A stretch of DNA of 18,619 nt, from sequence record MW929183.1. One strand, 5' to 3'. Made by a program: the position numbers and the translations under genes. Positions 2,945-18,619 of this stretch are shown here, piece by piece (position 1 is the stretch's first letter; the number at the start of each line of letters is the position of its first letter). The notes under the pieces are model-generated. The model did not search any database. It was not told where the DNA came from and was given only the letters and a program-made list of their open reading frames with translations. This DNA comes from Escherichia phage FS2B.

Positions 2945-3457
2945 TTAAGCAGGTGTTACACCAGTAAAAGTGCATGTTGCATTGATGGACGGGTCAGCTG
3001 TCAAACTTGCTTGAACAGTAACTTCGCCACTTGCAGCAGCATCTAATTTTAACGAATTATTAGCGCTTATTGTACCAGCTTCTACGGGAGTTACAACAAG
3101 TGTGTAATCATCAGCAACAGAATTGGTTACAGTAAACATGGTGTTGAAGTTAGTGGTAGTACCACCTACTTTACCTGTAATTGGCCCACGACTCACAATA
3201 GTAGGAGCAGGAGCAACAATTTCAGAAATGGTTGCTGTACCAGAAACACCTTCTAAAGTTGCAGTAATGGATACATCAGTGGATTGAGACGCACTCGGAG
3301 CAGTATACAAACCCGACTGAGTGATAGAACCACCTCCTGTCACTGACCAAGTAAAGCCAGTTGTTTCGGTAGAACCATCACTTTTCTCCGCGCTTGCAGT
3401 GAACTGCCGAGTAGCCCCTGTCTCTAGACTTGCTAAAGACGCAGGGCTAACAGTCAC
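2945..3457 (-). CDS. Ig-like domain ORF (T/S/G/A/V-rich, beta-rich), probably expressed as a C-terminal extension of the major capsid protein by -1 frameshifting rather than independently
   Basis: Track ORF begins at GTG 3457 with no SD and no ATG. Its reading frame stays open upstream to 3548, overlapping the last ~26 capsid codons in the -1 frame. Composition resembles bacterial Ig-like decoration domains. Confidence 0.6.
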   Translation of the reverse strand: MTVSPASLASLETGATRQFTASAEKSDGSTETTGFTWSVTGGGSITQSGLYTAPSASQSTDVSITATLEGVSGTATISEIVAPAPTIVSRGPITGKVGGTTTNFNTMFTVTNSVADDYTLVVTPVEAGTISANNSLKLDAAASGEVTVQASLTADPSINATCTFTGVTPA

Positions 3458-3468
3458 ACTGTCTACTG

Positions 3469-4527
3469 TTACGCCGCCACCTTTCCCGCAGCAGTGAACA
3501 GAACGCCGGAAGCGTACGGGTTGCGGTGACGCAGACCAACTTCCATTTCAATCATCCACTTCTCGTAAGAACCGTCTTTAGCCAGTTCAGTACGTTTCGG
3601 AGCACGCAGAACCATCTGAGTCCAGTCAGCGCTACGGAAGAAGTAAACTGCATCGGTAGGCATCCAACGGTTAACGATGATTTTGTAGCTCTGGCCCAGC
3701 GGGTCAGTGATGCTATTAACTTCGTAGATGAACTGCTTGGTGTTCTCAAAGATACGCTTACGTGAACCCTGAGTATTTTCTTGCAGACCAGCAAAGATCT
3801 TAGCATGAGCCGGGTTAATCATGATGATATCTGCTTCAGAACCAGCGGTATACAGTTGCAGAGTCATATCAAAGATATCAGCTTCGTCGAAACCAATGTT
3901 AGTGGTCGGGTTAGAAGCATTCTGTGCAACTTTAACAGTTACTGCACCAGTATCCGGGTCAGCAGGACCATTCTTGGTCTTGTCAACAACGCCACCAGCC
4001 AGACCACCGTGAGCACACAGGAACTGGAATGCACCAGTCTTACGAGCTGCATGGGTGTCATTCAGACCAACAACAGCAGGATCAGTTGCAGAGTTAGTCA
4101 GGTACTGGTCAGCCAGAACGTCGGTACGAGCCTGACCGGACAGAAGGATTTTCTCGAGGTCACGCTTGATCTCTTTACCTTTCTTCTCCAGCTGATACAT
4201 CAGTTCACGACCACGACCGTAGTTAGCGGTGGTGTTAGCAGTATCAGAAACACGAACAACCTTACGCAGAATCTGAGTAACGTTAGATTTGATAACAGTC
4301 GGTTTCATTTCGCCGTCTTCAGCACGAGAGCCTTCGACGTGTGCGTTATTACCGTCAACGCTTGCCAGTGCATCGGTCTGCCAGCTAAAGATAGTCTGGT
4401 TAATAGACTCTTTACCGGTCATAGATACGAACGGGGTATCCTGAGGGGACAGAACAGAAATCCAGTTAGCAAAAGAAAGTTTTTTACCATTCTGGTCATA
4501 CGATACAAATAAAGTTGGATTAGCCAT
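3469..4527 (-). CDS. Major capsid protein, 352 aa
   Basis: ORF directly after the scaffolding gene in the terminase-portal-scaffold-capsid order. ATG 4527, AGGAG ~10 nt upstream, stop TAA at 3469-3471. Size suits an HK97-fold coat protein. Assignment is by synteny and size, not a homology search. Confidence 0.75.
   Translation of the reverse strand: MANPTLFVSYDQNGKKLSFANWISVLSPQDTPFVSMTGKESINQTIFSWQTDALASVDGNNAHVEGSRAEDGEMKPTVIKSNVTQILRKVVRVSDTANTTANYGRGRELMYQLEKKGKEIKRDLEKILLSGQARTDVLADQYLTNSATDPAVVGLNDTHAARKTGAFQFLCAHGGLAGGVVDKTKNGPADPDTGAVTVKVAQNASNPTTNIGFDEADIFDMTLQLYTAGSEADIIMINPAHAKIFAGLQENTQGSRKRIFENTKQFIYEVNSITDPLGQSYKIIVNRWMPTDAVYFFRSADWTQMVLRAPKRTELAKDGSYEKWMIEMEVGLRHRNPYASGVLFTAAGKVAA
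3481..3487 (-). other. Candidate -1 programmed ribosomal frameshift site G GGA AAG in the capsid frame
   Basis: Capsid zero-frame codons GCG GGA AAG GTG GCG GCG TAA. The heptamer GGGAAAG fits X XXY YYZ and matches the slippery sequence used for lambda G/GT. A possible hairpin (AACAGT...ACTGTT, or ACAGT-GUG-ACUGU) starts ~9 nt downstream. Confidence 0.5.
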
Positions 4528-9805: not shown

Positions 9806-10279
9806 TTAACTCTCGTCCGCTTCCTCCCCCTTTTCAGCGTCCTCAGAGTTGTCTTCTTCTGGAGGCATAACGTCGATACCAAGTGCTCCAGTCAAGAAGT
9901 CCTTGATTTGTGCATTCAATGATTCTTCGTTGATTACATTCTCTTCCTCAATCTTAACTTCAACAGAGGCCGCCTTAGGATATACCAGATCTGCAACTTT
10001 TGATGCAGCCTTGAATCTAAGATCAGGTGGAATATTAGGATCTTCGTAAATTTGAATTAACACTTCATCAGGAGACAAATGACTTGCAGCAACACGGTCC
10101 AACATTAATTGTGTCAGTTTACCTCTACTACCTTTGGGTCGTCCGAATTTATTTCCCTTTTGAAACTTCCCATTGCTTGGGTTCATACCACGGCCTTCAA
10201 GTTCTTCCGTTACTCCGGGTAATCTTCCTGTAATCTCAGCTACCTGTGCAGGCGTGAGTTCTCCGTTTTCTCCAAACAT
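9806..10279 (-). CDS. Putative terminase small subunit, 157 aa
   Basis: Sits immediately upstream of terL. Basic N-terminal segment (GRPKGSRGK) typical of small-terminase DNA-binding regions, acidic C-terminal tail. ATG 10279 with SD AAGGAG at 6 nt spacing. Confidence 0.55.
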   Translation of the reverse strand: MFGENGELTPAQVAEITGRLPGVTEELEGRGMNPSNGKFQKGNKFGRPKGSRGKLTQLMLDRVAASHLSPDEVLIQIYEDPNIPPDLRFKAASKVADLVYPKAASVEVKIEEENVINEESLNAQIKDFLTGALGIDVMPPEEDNSEDAEKGEEADES

Positions 10280-10300
10280 TTTATACTCCTTCTACATTAT

Positions 10301-10335: not shown

Positions 10336-10962
10336 TTACTTACAATCACCAACGGACAGGTTAAACATCTTACCTAGAGCAACAGTCTCACCTTCCCACG
10401 GAAGTTCTACACCCTTCTCTTCCTCTAAAAGAATAGAGCCGTCGACCAAAAATTTTTCGTAGTCTCGCAGTGCGTCGTCTACTAGCTCACTCTTGTGAAT
10501 CCACGTAATTGTTTCTGTACCATCCTCTTCGATTCGAACATCACGATGCCATTCATCTTTGGAGGTAATATAATCATGGAGCATTTCGTATTCAGCTTCT
10601 TCAATCATCTCAATCATTGCACGAGCATAGTCAGGGAGGTGATCATGTTTAGTAGATTCATATTCAACTACTTCCAGAGTAGATGGTTGTGTTTTAGAAT
10701 TAGGGCGAGTAGTATGAATCAAATCTAACATATTTTTGTTCTCCGTAATATTTGGTTTAAGAATACTTCCACTATATAAATCTTGTACAGCTAATCCTGA
10801 AACATTTCCCATAGTTTCTAAATGCTGTAAGCTACAACCAGAGCGACATAGCTGTGAATTATAGTCAACCATGTCCATTGCTTTGATGTGGAAAGGAGAG
10901 CCAGAAGGGAAGCTACCTCCATAAACACCTTCCATATTACGTGCGATTATTTGATTATTCAT
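10336..10962 (-). CDS. Hypothetical protein, 208 aa (start revised from the track ORF)
   Basis: Track ORF runs to 11037, but the ATG at 10962 has a strong SD (AAGGGAGA, ~8 nt spacing) while the upstream part overlaps the preceding gene. No recognisable motif. Confidence 0.55.
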   Translation of the reverse strand: MNNQIIARNMEGVYGGSFPSGSPFHIKAMDMVDYNSQLCRSGCSLQHLETMGNVSGLAVQDLYSGSILKPNITENKNMLDLIHTTRPNSKTQPSTLEVVEYESTKHDHLPDYARAMIEMIEEAEYEMLHDYITSKDEWHRDVRIEEDGTETITWIHKSELVDDALRDYEKFLVDGSILLEEEKGVELPWEGETVALGKMFNLSVGDCK

Positions 10963-11209
10963 TTGTATCTCCCTTGCTGTAATCTTTGTATGTTTCTTTT
11001 CTGTAAGTGCGGAATGCTCTGAAGAAGAGCCAACCAAAACTACTTACATCAATTGTAATATCGAAATCTGTTTCATCATCTAAATCAACAAGACGACCTA
11101 AGCATGTAGCTTCCATCCCTTCTTCAGAGTCACTGTTGATTACGAAAGCGTATGTCTCTGTTCTGAACCGAGGCACCATCTCTGATAAAAAATCTAATAC
11201 TAAATTCAT
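10955..11209 (-). CDS. Hypothetical protein, 84 aa, first gene of the leftward block
   Basis: ATG 11209 with SD GGAGAAG. Acidic protein. Its stop overlaps the start region of the 208-aa gene. Confidence 0.5.
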   Translation of the reverse strand: MNLVLDFLSEMVPRFRTETYAFVINSDSEEGMEATCLGRLVDLDDETDFDITIDVSSFGWLFFRAFRTYRKETYKDYSKGDTNE

Positions 11210-13977: not shown

Positions 13978-14052
13978 GCTTAATCTTTCTCCTGTATTGT
14001 GCCGTAGTCATGCCTATGGTCATAATTTATCTGATTCTCTAATCCTTCCTGT

Positions 14053-14080
14053 AAGCCTCCTAGTGAGGCTTTTCTCTTTT
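14053..14080 (+). terminator. Rho-independent terminator ending the 12482-13977 operon
   Basis: Perfect 7-bp stem AAGCCUC / GAGGCUU with loop CUAGU, followed by UUCUCUUUU. Confidence 0.7.
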
Positions 14081-14361
14081 ATGAGGTGATTGTATGCCTT
14101 ACTCCCTTTTAGCTCGTTGTGATGCGTTTTAGGCCGCTAAATATCGCTTTACAAGCCATTTTCTATGATGTATCGCGTGCGCCTGCTCTTTTACCTTCCT
14201 ATAGTGAAAAAGTTTAAAATAATTTGCTTTACCCTATTGCAACCTCATCTGATTAGCGTATACTTCATTTCATCGGGTACGATGTAAAACATACAAGGCA
14301 AGAAATTGCCCCGCTCTTTAAAAATCAGGCTAGAAAGTGAAAATATTCTCAAAAAAGAGTA

Positions 14362-14390
14362 TTGACACCGGAAAAAGCCTGATATATAGT
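14362..14390 (+). promoter_or_regulatory. Strong sigma70-type promoter P1: TTGACA, 17 bp spacer, TATAGT, with A-rich upstream element
   Basis: TTGACA at 14362-14367, TATAGT at 14385-14390, spacer exactly 17 bp. A-tract (aaaaaagag) immediately upstream, UP-element-like. Confidence 0.65.
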
Positions 14391-14994
14391 GAGCATAGTC
14401 AGCGATGACTTAAAAAATCCCGCTCTTTAAAAATATGATTTGTCTTACGGGTGGCGGCGACGTCATTACTATAAGGCGCTCAGTTAATCGGTAGAATTGA
14501 TTCCTGATTCATACGTGACGCAGGCGGACAATAAGCAATATCAATAAGCCTTATTTGTTCGATACTTTCAAAAGATTAATGCTTGAAAGCGCACTAGATT
14601 CCCTGAAAGACAAATCAGACTTATCATCTTGCCCTTTCGCATAGATTCACGCGAGATAAGGGAAAGGAATTAAAAGAAGATGATAAAAAGAGTTGCAAAC
14701 GTGGTTAAAGTAGTCCATACTAACCACAAGTTAGCAAAACATCGCTAACTAGTTCCCAAATCAACGTATCGCGGGAAAGGTGGCACATAGTGCAGCGATT
14801 AGTTCAGGTGTAGGCGGCCTGTTAATGAATCAGTAAGCCTTCAATGTGACAGTGATTAGCAGACACTTTAAAAGGCTAAACGCTCTTTAACAATATGAGT
14901 CATAAGTTAAGCCTCACCGCTTAATCTTCAATCAAATAAAGCTGATTGATATATCCTCCCAATAGCGGGAACGACGAAAAAGATTAAAAAGCGG

Positions 14995-15023
14995 TTGACA
15001 GCGAAAACAACATGATTCATAAT
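14995..15023 (+). promoter_or_regulatory. Strong sigma70-type promoter P2: TTGACA, 17 bp spacer, CATAAT; paralogous to P1
   Basis: TTGACA at 14995-15000, CATAAT at 15018-15023. A-rich upstream (aaaaagattaaaaag). Both P1 and P2 are followed by GAGCA just after the -10. Confidence 0.65.
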
Positions 15024-15946
15024 GAGCACTCACTAAGCAAATCATCGCTTCAGTGAAAAGCGTAACAACGGCTAACAGTTGCATAGTGTGAGAAAGCACA
15101 CTGATAGATTTACCGCTCTTTAATAATTTAAACATTCTCCTATATCGGTTGAATATGCTTGATGATAATAACCATCGGAAAGCATACCAGATAAAACGGC
15201 GTAAAACTCCCTAAATTATCAGGGTAAACAGTTTTACATTCCCTTACTGGAAACGTCACCATTGATAAACGGATTCATTGAGTACACGCAAAGACTTGAG
15301 CTAATCGCCCACGGTTAAGGGTAGCGGCGGTCATTGCTAACACGGTGCTACAGTGAAAGAAGTTAATCAGGGTAGGCAAGTCCGACGAATTAACGCTCAA
15401 TTGAGAGCGGCGGGGAGTGGTTAAAAAGTGGCAAATTGCTATTTAACAATAAGGTTTAATGCGAACGTTTACGATGTGAACGGCTTGAGATTCATCATAG
15501 GATGAAAGTACATAGCCGGGTTATGTAGTAAACCTGCTGAAAGATATAAAACGCCGGAATATTAGGCGGTTAGTGACTCTTTCGCAATAGTATCCCGTAG
15601 TGGGCGATGACTAGCGATAGAGAGCTGATACAAAAGGATAAGCGGGAGCGAAAACAAAGTAGACGATATTGCCGACGGTTACAATAACGTAACTAATTAG
15701 AGTCGGACGCACTGCCTTATTGTGATGATTGATCATCGCTATCAGGTCGGCTTCGTTTATAGCGACTAATTAAAGATACCAGATGAAACATCACGGATAA
15801 GGGGGCGGCAAGGTTAACTCCTGATAAGACCGCCCCGCTTACCTATAACTACTTAACAACGAGTGGTTATAGTTAAGTTAATAGTGACTTAAACAAGCTC
15901 ATAGAGAGCGGGGCAATAGCGCCCTTACAATTGAAAGGTGAATATT

Positions 15947-17672: not shown

Positions 17673-18116
17673 GTGGCTAAATCTAAAATCAGCATGAAGG
17701 GCGGGCGTTGTTTTGCTATCTCTGAACTAGAGAAAGAGAAACCGAAGGCAACTAATCACGTTAGTAAGCGTAGTTTAAAACGTCGTGCTGCAAAGGCTGA
17801 GGCTGAATCCCATGTTCCTTCAAGTGTGGCAAAACGTGTAGGCCATCGTGTCCATCGGGCTGATGCGTTGTTATTAGCTGATCATAAACGTTCTTTGTTA
17901 CAGAGCGGGGGAGCTAAAACAGAAGAGGAGAAGAAGTTAGAAATCTTCTGTAATGGTCGCACCCGTGGTAAACAGAAGTTTAAAGGTAGCACGAAAGACC
18001 CGCAGGCTTTCCCTAAGACAAGCCAGTGTGCACCTGATGTTTTCTACGCAGATAGTAAACACAAGTGGGGCGTTGAGAAATACATTGACCCCATCAAAGA
18101 GGCAAGGGTTAAGTAG
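17673..18116 (+). CDS. Basic hypothetical protein, 147 aa, GTG start
   Basis: GTG 17673 with SD AAGGA ~8 nt upstream. K/R-rich, possibly nucleic-acid binding. Followed by two terminators. Confidence 0.55.
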   Translation: MAKSKISMKGGRCFAISELEKEKPKATNHVSKRSLKRRAAKAEAESHVPSSVAKRVGHRVHRADALLLADHKRSLLQSGGAKTEEEKKLEIFCNGRTRGKQKFKGSTKDPQAFPKTSQCAPDVFYADSKHKWGVEKYIDPIKEARVK

Positions 18117-18196: not shown

Positions 18197-18218
18197 AGCC
18201 GCCTTTGAGCGGCTTTTT
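18197..18218 (+). terminator. Rho-independent terminator (first of a tandem pair)
   Basis: Stem AGCCGC / GCGGCU with loop CUUUGA, followed by UUUU. Confidence 0.55.
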
Positions 18219-18281
18219 GCGTTGCTGTAAGTGCATTTGCGAGTGTATTTATAGCAACGGTCATGTGTTGCTTTCAGGTTT

Positions 18282-18309
18282 GCCCCGGCTACGGCTGGGG
18301 CTTTTTTTA
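18282..18309 (+). terminator. Rho-independent terminator (second of the pair)
   Basis: 8-bp stem GCCCCGGC / GCUGGGGC with one G-U pair, UACG tetraloop, followed by UUUUUUUA. Confidence 0.7.
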
Positions 18310-18334
18310 TGTCTACTGTATAGGAATCTATGAA

Positions 18335-18619
18335 ATGAAAGCAATTGTATTATCCTCAATCCTAGCTCTGTCCGTAATGGCATCGCCTGTTATTGCTAAA
18401 AGTGGAAACAATGGCAATGGCAATGGAGGTTGTGGTGTAGGTCAATCTACCAATGGTTGCGGTATCGGAGATTGGTTTAAAGGTGAAAAAGGTGATCAGG
18501 GAGAGAAAGGCGACACTGGCGCTAATGGCATTGATGGTAAAGATGGCATTGATGGTAAAGATGGCATTGATGGTAAAGATGGCATTGATGGTAAAGATGG
18601 CATTGATGGTAAAGATGGC
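18335..18619 (+). CDS. Secreted collagen-like protein, partial (runs off window end)
   Basis: ATG 18335, not in the ORF track because no stop falls in the window. N-terminal signal-peptide-like MKAIVLSSILALSVMASPVIA, a Gly/Asn/Cys-rich linker, then uninterrupted Gly-X-Y triplets (GEKGDQGEKGDTGANGIDGKDGIDGKDG...). Confidence 0.65.
   Translation, partial: MKAIVLSSILALSVMASPVIAKSGNNGNGNGGCGVGQSTNGCGIGDWFKGEKGDQGEKGDTGANGIDGKDGIDGKDGIDGKDGIDGKDGIDGKDG
18527..18619 (+). repeat. Perfect 18-bp tandem repeat (ggcattgatggtaaagat), at least 5 copies, encoding (GIDGKD)n
   Basis: Read directly from the sequence; the array continues to the window edge. Confidence 0.9.

Follow-up and report, generated by a model that had tools for sequence, protein, structure and literature searches.

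Results

The collagen-like gene of phage FS2B

The window analysed here was the whole stretch of 18,619 nucleotides (nt) from Escherichia phage FS2B (MW929183.1), one strand read 5' to 3'. A collagen-like open reading frame (ORF) at its right end is, very probably, the 5' third of a gene for a small type Vc trimeric autotransporter with a collagen passenger, made for the outer membrane of the infected cell and not for the virion. ATG 18335 on the plus strand starts a frame of 95 codons that is still open at the window end (18619). The visible portion of the ORF corresponds to the N-terminal third of the protein only, and the remainder lies beyond the window. A Shine-Dalgarno-like AGGA was read from the sequence at 18322-18325 on the plus strand, 9 nt before the ATG. 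A two-codon mini-ORF (Met-Lys-stop), ATGAAATGA, at 18330-18338 overlaps the true start codon, and its ATGAAATGAAAGC string is also kept in a second allele carried by phages ShigP1 and EcP-vB.

Translation from ATG 18335 gives MKAIVLSSILALSVMASPVIA, KSGNNGNGNGGCGVGQSTNGCGIGDWFK and GEKGDQGEKGDTGANG in succession, followed by five copies of IDGKDG. The first of these segments, residues 1-21 (18335-18397, +), was called by rule as a Sec leader with its cleavage site predicted after VIA. It begins with K2, continues with a hydrophobic core of 14 residues and ends in P18-V-I-A21 with small residues at −3 and −1. No lipobox was found in these 21 residues. The second segment is the mature head, 28 Gly/Asn-rich residues (22-49; 18398-18481, +) that include two Cys, C33 and C42, and its coding region contains a (CAATGG)3 microrepeat at 18409-18426. 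The collagen-like Gly-X-Y stalk starts at G50 (18482-18619, +), and 15 triplets are visible before it is cut by the window end. The fragment of 95 residues alone matched the Pfam Collagen model PF01391 with E = 2.7e-9 and 37.1 bits (cut-off 27.2).

Most of the visible stalk is encoded by a perfect tandem array of 18 base pair (bp) units at 18525-18619 (+), which Tandem Repeats Finder reported with period 18, 5.3 copies, 100% matches and a score of 190. Placed in codon register, the array consists of five GGCATTGATGGTAAAGAT units at 18527-18616 followed by GGC, and each unit encodes GIDGKD. Such an array is far beyond chance, and its copies are identical at synonymous sites as well. The initial annotation had described a Sec-type leader, a Gly/Asn/Cys-rich linker and at least five perfect copies of an 18-bp unit encoding GIDGKD. 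All three descriptions held: the leader has the classical n/h/c layout and its equivalent, a hydrophobic N-terminus, was seen in 114 of 120 homologues; residues 22-49 are the linker with its two Cys; and the array is perfect over 5.3 copies.

Orthologues carry a coiled coil and a YadA-type anchor

The window was 97-99% identical at the nucleotide level to phiEco32-like podoviruses (Gordonclarkvirinae, Kuravirus), with SkaterBoy_Bas90, phiEc_1, MN03, Ec3-ASingh and phiEco32 as the best matches. The collagen ORF is the orthologue of phiEco32 gp119 (phi32_119, YP_001671864) and SkaterBoy Bas90_0117. Public records label these orthologues variously as "agglutinating adhesin", "YadA-like protein" and "tail protein". 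SkaterBoy (Bas90), a BASEL phage, infects an engineered K-12 strain. It is 99% identical to the window across the shared 1 kb, and its product from the same ATG has 262 amino acids (aa), of which residues 1-95 are identical to the window product. Its domains are ordered as leader, head, 34 Gly-X-Y triplets, a heptad-rich segment and a C-terminal part reading ...AGISGVAAMANIPQV...GAGVSYEW. Full-length orthologues range from 196 to 262 aa, about 45 residues of which form the coiled coil, and a scan of IMG/VR gave no further close alleles beyond phiEco32 itself.

The anchor and the coiled coil were judged on orthologues that are 98-100% identical over the shared part. As shown by profile searches, the 262-aa orthologue matched Pfam YadA_anchor PF03895 over the full profile (1-60/60; E = 4.4e-19, 68.7 bits, cut-off 22.7) and Pfam Collagen with E = 6.8e-17, and the NCBIfam models of the YadA and BimA autotransporters aligned to its residues 152-262 (from 152 or 161 to the end). 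A sequence search of the PDB matched the anchors of YadA (2LME, 1.9e-8) and Hia (2GR7, 2GR8, 3EMO). The AlphaFold2 (AF2) monomer of a 226-aa orthologue contained one long helix (119-164) and four strands (175-224), with a predicted local distance difference test score (pLDDT) of 73-90 in these parts. The five best Foldseek matches in the PDB were all anchors of trimeric autotransporters (Hia, AtaA, YadA), with TM scores of 0.67-0.86 and root-mean-square deviations of 1.7-2.7 Å in four of the five and 9.2 Å for 3EMO. Thus the Sec leader of a type Vc protein is present in the window itself, and the PF03895 anchor, the coiled coil and the terminal aromatic residue are present in the orthologues.

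These results changed the view of the protein as a collagen-like protein with a signal peptide. Leader and Gly-X-Y stalk are as first described, but the protein is not merely collagen-like, as its orthologues add a coiled coil and a YadA-like anchor. Sec export is the normal first step of type Vc secretion, which explains the signal peptide, and given a YadA-type anchor a leader on a collagen-like phage protein is therefore no anomaly. The extension of the gene that the initial annotation had called for could be followed through relatives, in which it runs on into coiled coil and anchor; the window's own copy ends in the array.

A wider search of protein collections gave more than 3,000 hits, and among the best 120 the pairing of Collagen with YadA_anchor was nearly universal. 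Many of these 120 are encoded on phage-sized contigs of about 70-72 kb. Six of them do not have the leader-like N-terminus and resemble mis-called starts. A terminal W was found in 118 of the 120, in line with the ...GAGVSYEW end of the orthologues; a terminal aromatic residue is usual for outer-membrane barrels. In 102 of the 120 the Cys count is exactly two; both Cys precede the stalk, at a spacing of 5, 6 or 8 residues, and they often form part of the motif SQCASxWxCNN. Homologues in this set (P0001-P0120) that are free of Cys carry an N-terminal coiled coil instead, which suggests that the Cys pair and the N-terminal coiled coil may be two alternative caps for the distal end of the triple helix.

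A tblastn search with stalk and anchor gave 110 phage records, among them phages of Escherichia, Salmonella, Erwinia, Yersinia, Proteus, Aeromonas, Pantoea and Cronobacter, T4-like and jumbo phages included. Phages that combine collagen, YadA anchor and leader are mostly virulent. Records of relatives already include annotations of the gene, and its homology to YadA is published, so that the gene as such is not novel. That homology was reported for the phiEco32 gene in 2013, together with counterparts in Salmonella phages SP-058 and SP-076 that lie away from the tail genes (PMC3728262). In the literature searched, YadA-like or collagen autotransporters encoded by phages turned up only in mentions at the level of annotation, and no study of their function was found.

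The stalk varies in length by whole repeat units

The number of GIDGKD copies differs from phage to phage: KM01 has 0, EK5 1, phiEco32 2, phiEc_1 4, Ec3-ASingh 5, SkaterBoy 7 and PGN6866 at least 8, and the window shows at least 5. The total stalk comprises 12 to at least 35 Gly-X-Y triplets among orthologues. Despite these differences in copy number the reading frame is intact in every complete allele. The protein thus has perfect in-frame units whose count differs between isolates, as in variable-number tandem-repeat surface proteins, and the earlier expectation that a slippage-prone array would vary in length agrees with the range of 0 to at least 8 copies. Since the unit is 18 bp long, slippage alters the length of the stalk without switching the protein on or off. 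Collagen geometry has a rise of about 0.29 nm per residue. By this estimate each 18-bp unit would add about 1.7 nm, and the alleles would span roughly 10-30 nm.

The array also accounts for broken assemblies, as the window's contig and several GenBank records stop inside it. PGN6866 and FS2B are partial genomes that end inside the gene, and ShigP1 (L007) has a run of N within the array at about 3455-3555. The record of MN03 (MT129653) is linearised within the array and its two ends fail to join in frame; an MN03 allele rebuilt from the joined ends was unusable, with the junction inside the array and out of frame. At the other end of the window, positions 1-609 contain a 282-bp tandem repeat (2.2 copies, 99% identity) that lies in the 3' part of the long tail-fibre gene 3-2081 (PHROG 10305), and the window start falls inside this repeat. 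Both ends of the window therefore lie in tandem repeats, which suggests an entire contig with a break in a repeat on either side.

The gene occupies an optional cassette behind two terminators

Late genes occupy the minus strand of the window and include those for the large terminase, portal, scaffold, major head protein, a structural protein and the true tail fibre (3-2081). The plus strand from about 12.5 kb on forms the early arm. The collagen ORF belongs to the early arm, about 4 kb downstream of two matches to sigma-70 promoters; it is on the strand opposite all virion genes and about 16 kb from the tail-fibre gene.

Two terminator-like hairpins separate the collagen ORF from the upstream early gene at 17673-18116. 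The first, AGCCGCCTTTGAGCGGCT followed by TTTTTG (18197-18222, +), has a stem at 18197-18214 with 6 pairs, 5 of them GC, and is conserved in relatives. The second is stronger: GCCCCGGCTACGGCTGGGGC followed by a run of seven T (18282-18308, +), with a stem at 18282-18301 of 8 pairs, 7 of them GC. Terminator-like sites numbered 4 in the scanned stretch against 1.2 expected. Public starts of the coding sequence (CTG/TTG) in phiEco32 RefSeq (L001 6619-7416) and SkaterBoy (L002 6606-7523) are set 117-130 nt upstream and translate both terminators; these starts are almost certainly wrong.

The left boundary of a variable cassette was found just after the second terminator. The same allele as in the window occurs in phiEco32, SkaterBoy, phiEc_1, EK5, KM01, Ec3-ASingh and PGN6866. 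The second allele, in ShigP1 (L007) and EcP-vB (L008) at about 3178-3954, has a different leader and head (MKAFALSAILVLSAISAPSFA/HSDKCSHSKQCEV...) and the common C-terminus. SR02 has an unrelated HTH_37 (XRE/antitoxin-like) gene at the cassette site (L012 3220-3520). The site is empty in SU10, Bas91 and CHD5UKE1, where the terminator is followed directly by a gene for a SleB-like hydrolase. The autotransporter gene was present in roughly 15 of 79 matching phage records and missing in 10 of 10 contigs in which an identical copy of the upstream neighbour protein is encoded. The insertion site looks like a cassette-exchange hotspot. All three cassettes have a TGTATAGG-type element on the 5' side, and the window-type and SR02 cassettes also have a 3' hairpin and a GTGTTTCTATAA..GAAACAAC flank.

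A terminator-like hairpin lies directly 3' of the stop codon in SkaterBoy (L002 7531-7548) and also in SP-058. In SkaterBoy a "hypothetical protein" of 43 aa (L002 7528-7659) begins inside this downstream hairpin and is likely an annotation error. The next gene downstream in SkaterBoy (L002 7634-8023), also in the early arm, encodes a SleB-like cell-wall hydrolase (Pfam Hydrolase_2, 1.7e-7) that is distinct from the endolysin of the Kuravirus late module.

The GC content at third codon positions was 0.256 in the autotransporter gene against 0.41-0.45 in neighbour genes. The gene thus shows the marks of a moron: presence or absence between conserved flanks, its own terminator and deviant composition. 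The initial annotation had taken the ORF for a separate unit behind a pair of strong terminators, possibly a moron or a host-derived gene. The hairpins before the ORF, the absence from SU10, Bas91 and CHD5UKE1, the replacement in SR02 and the deviant third codon positions all agree with a separate unit of the moron kind. A host origin at close range was not supported. Blastn in distant mode with the gene against 5,426 complete E. coli genomes gave no match, and recent capture from that species was rejected on this result. The closest relatives among bacterial proteins, small autotransporters from Leminorella, Cedecea and an uncultured Enterobacteriaceae, have only stalk and anchor in common with the phage protein, at 53-60% identity. 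A Yokenella protein of 313 aa combines a collagen segment with the anchor at 37% identity.

Candidate signals for expression

A promoter-like element, TACTGTATA, lies between the second terminator and the start codon (18314-18322, +) and agrees in 8 of 9 positions with the gp36-sigma consensus. The consensus of phiEco32 middle/late promoters for gp36-sigma is tAATGTAtA, with the start site 6-8 nt downstream (PMC8948821). At that distance TACTGTATA as a promoter would give a transcript with almost no leader. Similar elements, TATTGTATA and TATTATATA, are found 5' of the other two cassettes, and the empty site has no such element. We regard TACTGTATA as a candidate gp36-type promoter only; transcription by read-through from early promoters is just as plausible.

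Positions 13978-15937, a stretch of about 2 kb that is poor in ORFs, have no plus-strand ORF of 50 aa or more and are unannotated in phiEco32 too. This stretch contains the two sigma-70 promoter matches (11/12 each, 14362-14390 and 14995-15023), which face the collagen ORF, and four copies of a CGCTCTTTAAnAAT motif (14312, 14421, 14881 and 15114). The stretch is probably the early promoter or regulatory region. Early promoters have been described at the head of the early gene cluster (PMC8948821), which fits these matches.

Elements resembling the gp36 consensus were also seen near other genes. With one mismatch, TAATGTAGA at 10291-10299 on the minus strand follows a T-rich stretch and stands 11 nt before the gene 9806-10279 (ATG 10279). 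This gene and the autotransporter gene have a common layout of T-run, element, AGGAG and ATG. An exact consensus, TAATGTATA, is found at 2877-2885 on the minus strand, upstream of the structural gene 2091-2843. A separate ORF of 233 aa at 10336-11037 (−), between the terminase region and the genome-end junction, matched PHROG 12176 (1.7e-106), a family labelled "ABC transporter" in the moron and host-takeover category. No structured RNA was matched in the window by Rfam at gathering thresholds.

Discussion

A predicted fibre on the surface of the infected cell

Judged by what is known of type Vc secretion, the protein would be exported by Sec during infection and its leader cleaved after VIA. 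Three anchors would then be assembled by the barrel assembly machinery (BAM) into a 12-stranded outer-membrane barrel, through which the three passenger chains would thread outward. Folding would proceed from the membrane-proximal coiled coil outward. The coiled coil and the trimeric anchor stand directly C-terminal of the stalk and are a plausible trimerisation nucleus, from which the collagen helix would zip in the direction C to N. The outcome would be a rigid fibre, roughly 10-30 nm long, on the infected-cell surface, its tip perhaps capped by a small loop that the Cys pair C33/C42 may form. Slippage or unequal recombination would shift the copy number of the array with the frame kept, and the stalk would vary in length while the protein stays on.

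Several points weigh against this picture. The C-terminal two thirds of the gene are outside the window, the architecture is taken from orthologues, and a truncation or frameshift further along the window's own copy is possible in principle. The collagen stalk was unresolved in the AF2 monomer (pLDDT <50), and export, trimerisation, triple helix and surface display are predicted. As to expression, matches to the gp36 consensus with at most one mismatch numbered 5 in the window against 7.1 expected, which is not above chance, and no sigma-70 promoter was found between the terminators and ATG 18335. A role in the lytic cycle is argued purely by inference, which does not tell adhesion and shielding apart.

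Comparison with known systems

The closest counterparts are phiEco32 gp119, Bas90_0117 and the EcP-vB "YadA-like protein", which are the same gene at the same locus, with the N-terminal 64 residues identical or one residue off. Head, collagen units, coiled coil and anchor are common to them and the window orthologue. YadA of Yersinia, Hia and AtaA are alike in the Sec leader, in the coiled coil that runs into an anchor of four strands per chain and in the terminal aromatic residue (2LME, 2GR7, 3EMO, 9VNJ). Their passengers consist of a beta-roll head and a long coiled coil, whereas that of the phage protein is a collagen helix with a tiny Cys-loop head. Unlike them, the phage protein is also very small (196-262 aa) and is encoded by a strictly virulent phage. 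The Eib proteins (EibD and others) of E. coli prophages are phage-borne trimeric autotransporters as well, with a detectably related anchor: tblastn to P-EibD gave 35% identity with E = 6e-5. They differ in being carried by temperate prophages and expressed by lysogens, with immunoglobulin-binding coiled-coil/YadA-like passengers, whereas here a lytic phage encodes a collagen-like passenger.

Lcl of Legionella pneumophila and streptococcal Scl1/Scl2 have surface-anchored Gly-X-Y stalks without hydroxyproline, like the phage stalk. The NCBIfam models SclA, SclB and Lcl matched the stalk, none of them at the curated cut-off, so that the likeness is one of resemblance and not of membership. Lcl and Scl differ in their anchoring, by LPXTG or other means as against a YadA barrel, and have the trimerisation domain at the opposite end. 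Polymorphisms of Lcl are reported to affect adhesion and biofilm formation (PMC6460258).

The same architecture as in the window orthologues occurs in Salmonella phages FSL SP-058 and SP-076 and in many virulent phages (PHROG 26246, 17426), with stalk and anchor 67-68% identical. The SP-058 and SP-076 proteins also have a signal peptide, the two-Cys motif and a terminal W. They differ in a larger beta-rich head of about 55 residues and in stalks of up to about 58 triplets, and they belong to other phage lineages.

Possible roles and other readings

The role that we rank first, tentatively and at somewhat under an even chance, is adhesion or auto-aggregation, which would keep the infected cell by fresh hosts or surfaces. 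It is ranked first because trimeric autotransporters, and the collagen-like surface proteins of bacteria too, commonly function in this way.

Ranked second is superinfection exclusion by steric shielding, a possible role that we hold to be on the unlikely side. Dense rigid fibres on infected cells and on outer-membrane fragments after lysis would keep competing or sibling phages off their lipopolysaccharide (LPS) receptors and so reduce adsorption to cells and debris. The gene lies in the early arm, and by general collagen geometry the range of stalk lengths, about 10-30 nm, is on the scale of the LPS layer. Kuraviruses need O-antigen and then a cell-surface receptor that is reached by short fibres (PMC11990801), and exclusion factors known from phages, for example Llp of T5, act at the outer membrane. 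However, no trimeric autotransporter is known to exclude phages, and most Kuraviruses do without the gene. PADLOC gave no match, and a known anti-phage defence protein was discarded as a candidate on that result. The remaining probability falls to another role or to no benefit at all.

It is improbable that the gene is a selfish, neutral or decaying passenger cassette whose repeat variation is slippage noise. Its sporadic presence, the identical flanking genes in genomes with and without it and its foreign codon usage would all agree with such a passenger, as would the perfection of the array at synonymous sites, a sign of recent slippage and not of selection on the protein sequence. Yet in all complete alleles the frame, the leader, the two Cys, the anchor and the terminal Trp are intact, whichever of the two heads they carry and however long the stalk. 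The same architecture is also found in more than 100 clusters from several unrelated groups of virulent phages, which argues for purifying selection.

PHROGs and several GenBank records label the gene as a tail fibre or tail protein, with the collagen rod as a part of the particle. The best PHROG is phrog_26246, "tail protein" (1.5e-108), and there are many weaker, collagen-driven matches to tail-fibre PHROGs; the RefSeq records of phiEco32 and Bas90 carry the label as well. The PHROG label arises from collagen similarity. Collagen-like segments are common in phage fibres, and YadA-domain proteins have been detected in a cyanophage virion (PMC9146016). Against this, a cleavable Sec leader and a full outer-membrane barrel anchor with a terminal Trp are incompatible with the cytoplasmic assembly of a podovirus tail. 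A tail fibre would be expected in the late module, conserved and free of export signal and membrane anchor, whereas this gene is in the early arm, on the strand opposite the structural genes and with about 16 kb between it and the tail-fibre gene. SU10, Bas91, CHD5UKE1 and ES17-like genomes have the same virion genes but not this gene, and the virion structure of SU10 has been solved without a protein of the gp119 type (PMC11990801). A virion protein is thus highly improbable, and the doubt in the initial annotation that this was an ordinary tail fibre proved justified by leader and anchor, by the early-strand position and by the absence from relatives with the same virion genes.

Least credible is a soluble collagen-like protein, secreted with a leader and without an anchor into the medium or the periplasm: only leader, linker and Gly-X-Y are visible in the window, but all complete orthologues with this N-terminus run into coiled coil and YadA anchor (7 GenBank alleles, P0001-P0009), and the near-identity of the window to SkaterBoy speaks against it too.

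A role in lysis, with the autotransporter as an outer-membrane disruptor beside the SleB-like hydrolase, was also considered and rejected. Phages of the phiEco32 type have their own spanins and holin/endolysin in the late module, and the hydrolase is retained where the autotransporter gene is absent (SU10, Bas91, CHD5UKE1).

Significance of a probable phage-encoded surface autotransporter

The reading as an outer-membrane autotransporter implies corrections to the databases, as the "tail protein" label and the start codons across two terminators are both unlikely to be right. Known phage products that are delivered to the host outer membrane and alter the behaviour of the cell surface are Lom and Bor of lambda, both of them classic morons active in lysogens, and Llp of T5, a lipoprotein that blocks FhuA. 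Their folds are unrelated to that of an autotransporter. In the family described here, many strictly lytic phages have preserved a complete and intact outer-membrane adhesin module whose collagen stalk can be tuned by slippage. A study of its function could reveal a new way in which phages manipulate the infected-cell surface.

It is conceivable, if rather doubtful, that virulent phages of Enterobacterales and related Gram-negatives (Kuravirus, SP-058-like podophages, T4-like and jumbo phages) share one strategy, in which an autotransporter with a collagen stalk would be planted in the outer membrane of a cell soon to be lysed, as a steric shield or exclusion layer or as transmission glue, and its length would be tuned by slippage to the surface layer of the host. 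If true, this shared strategy would define a new functional class of phage-encoded factors that remodel the cell surface.

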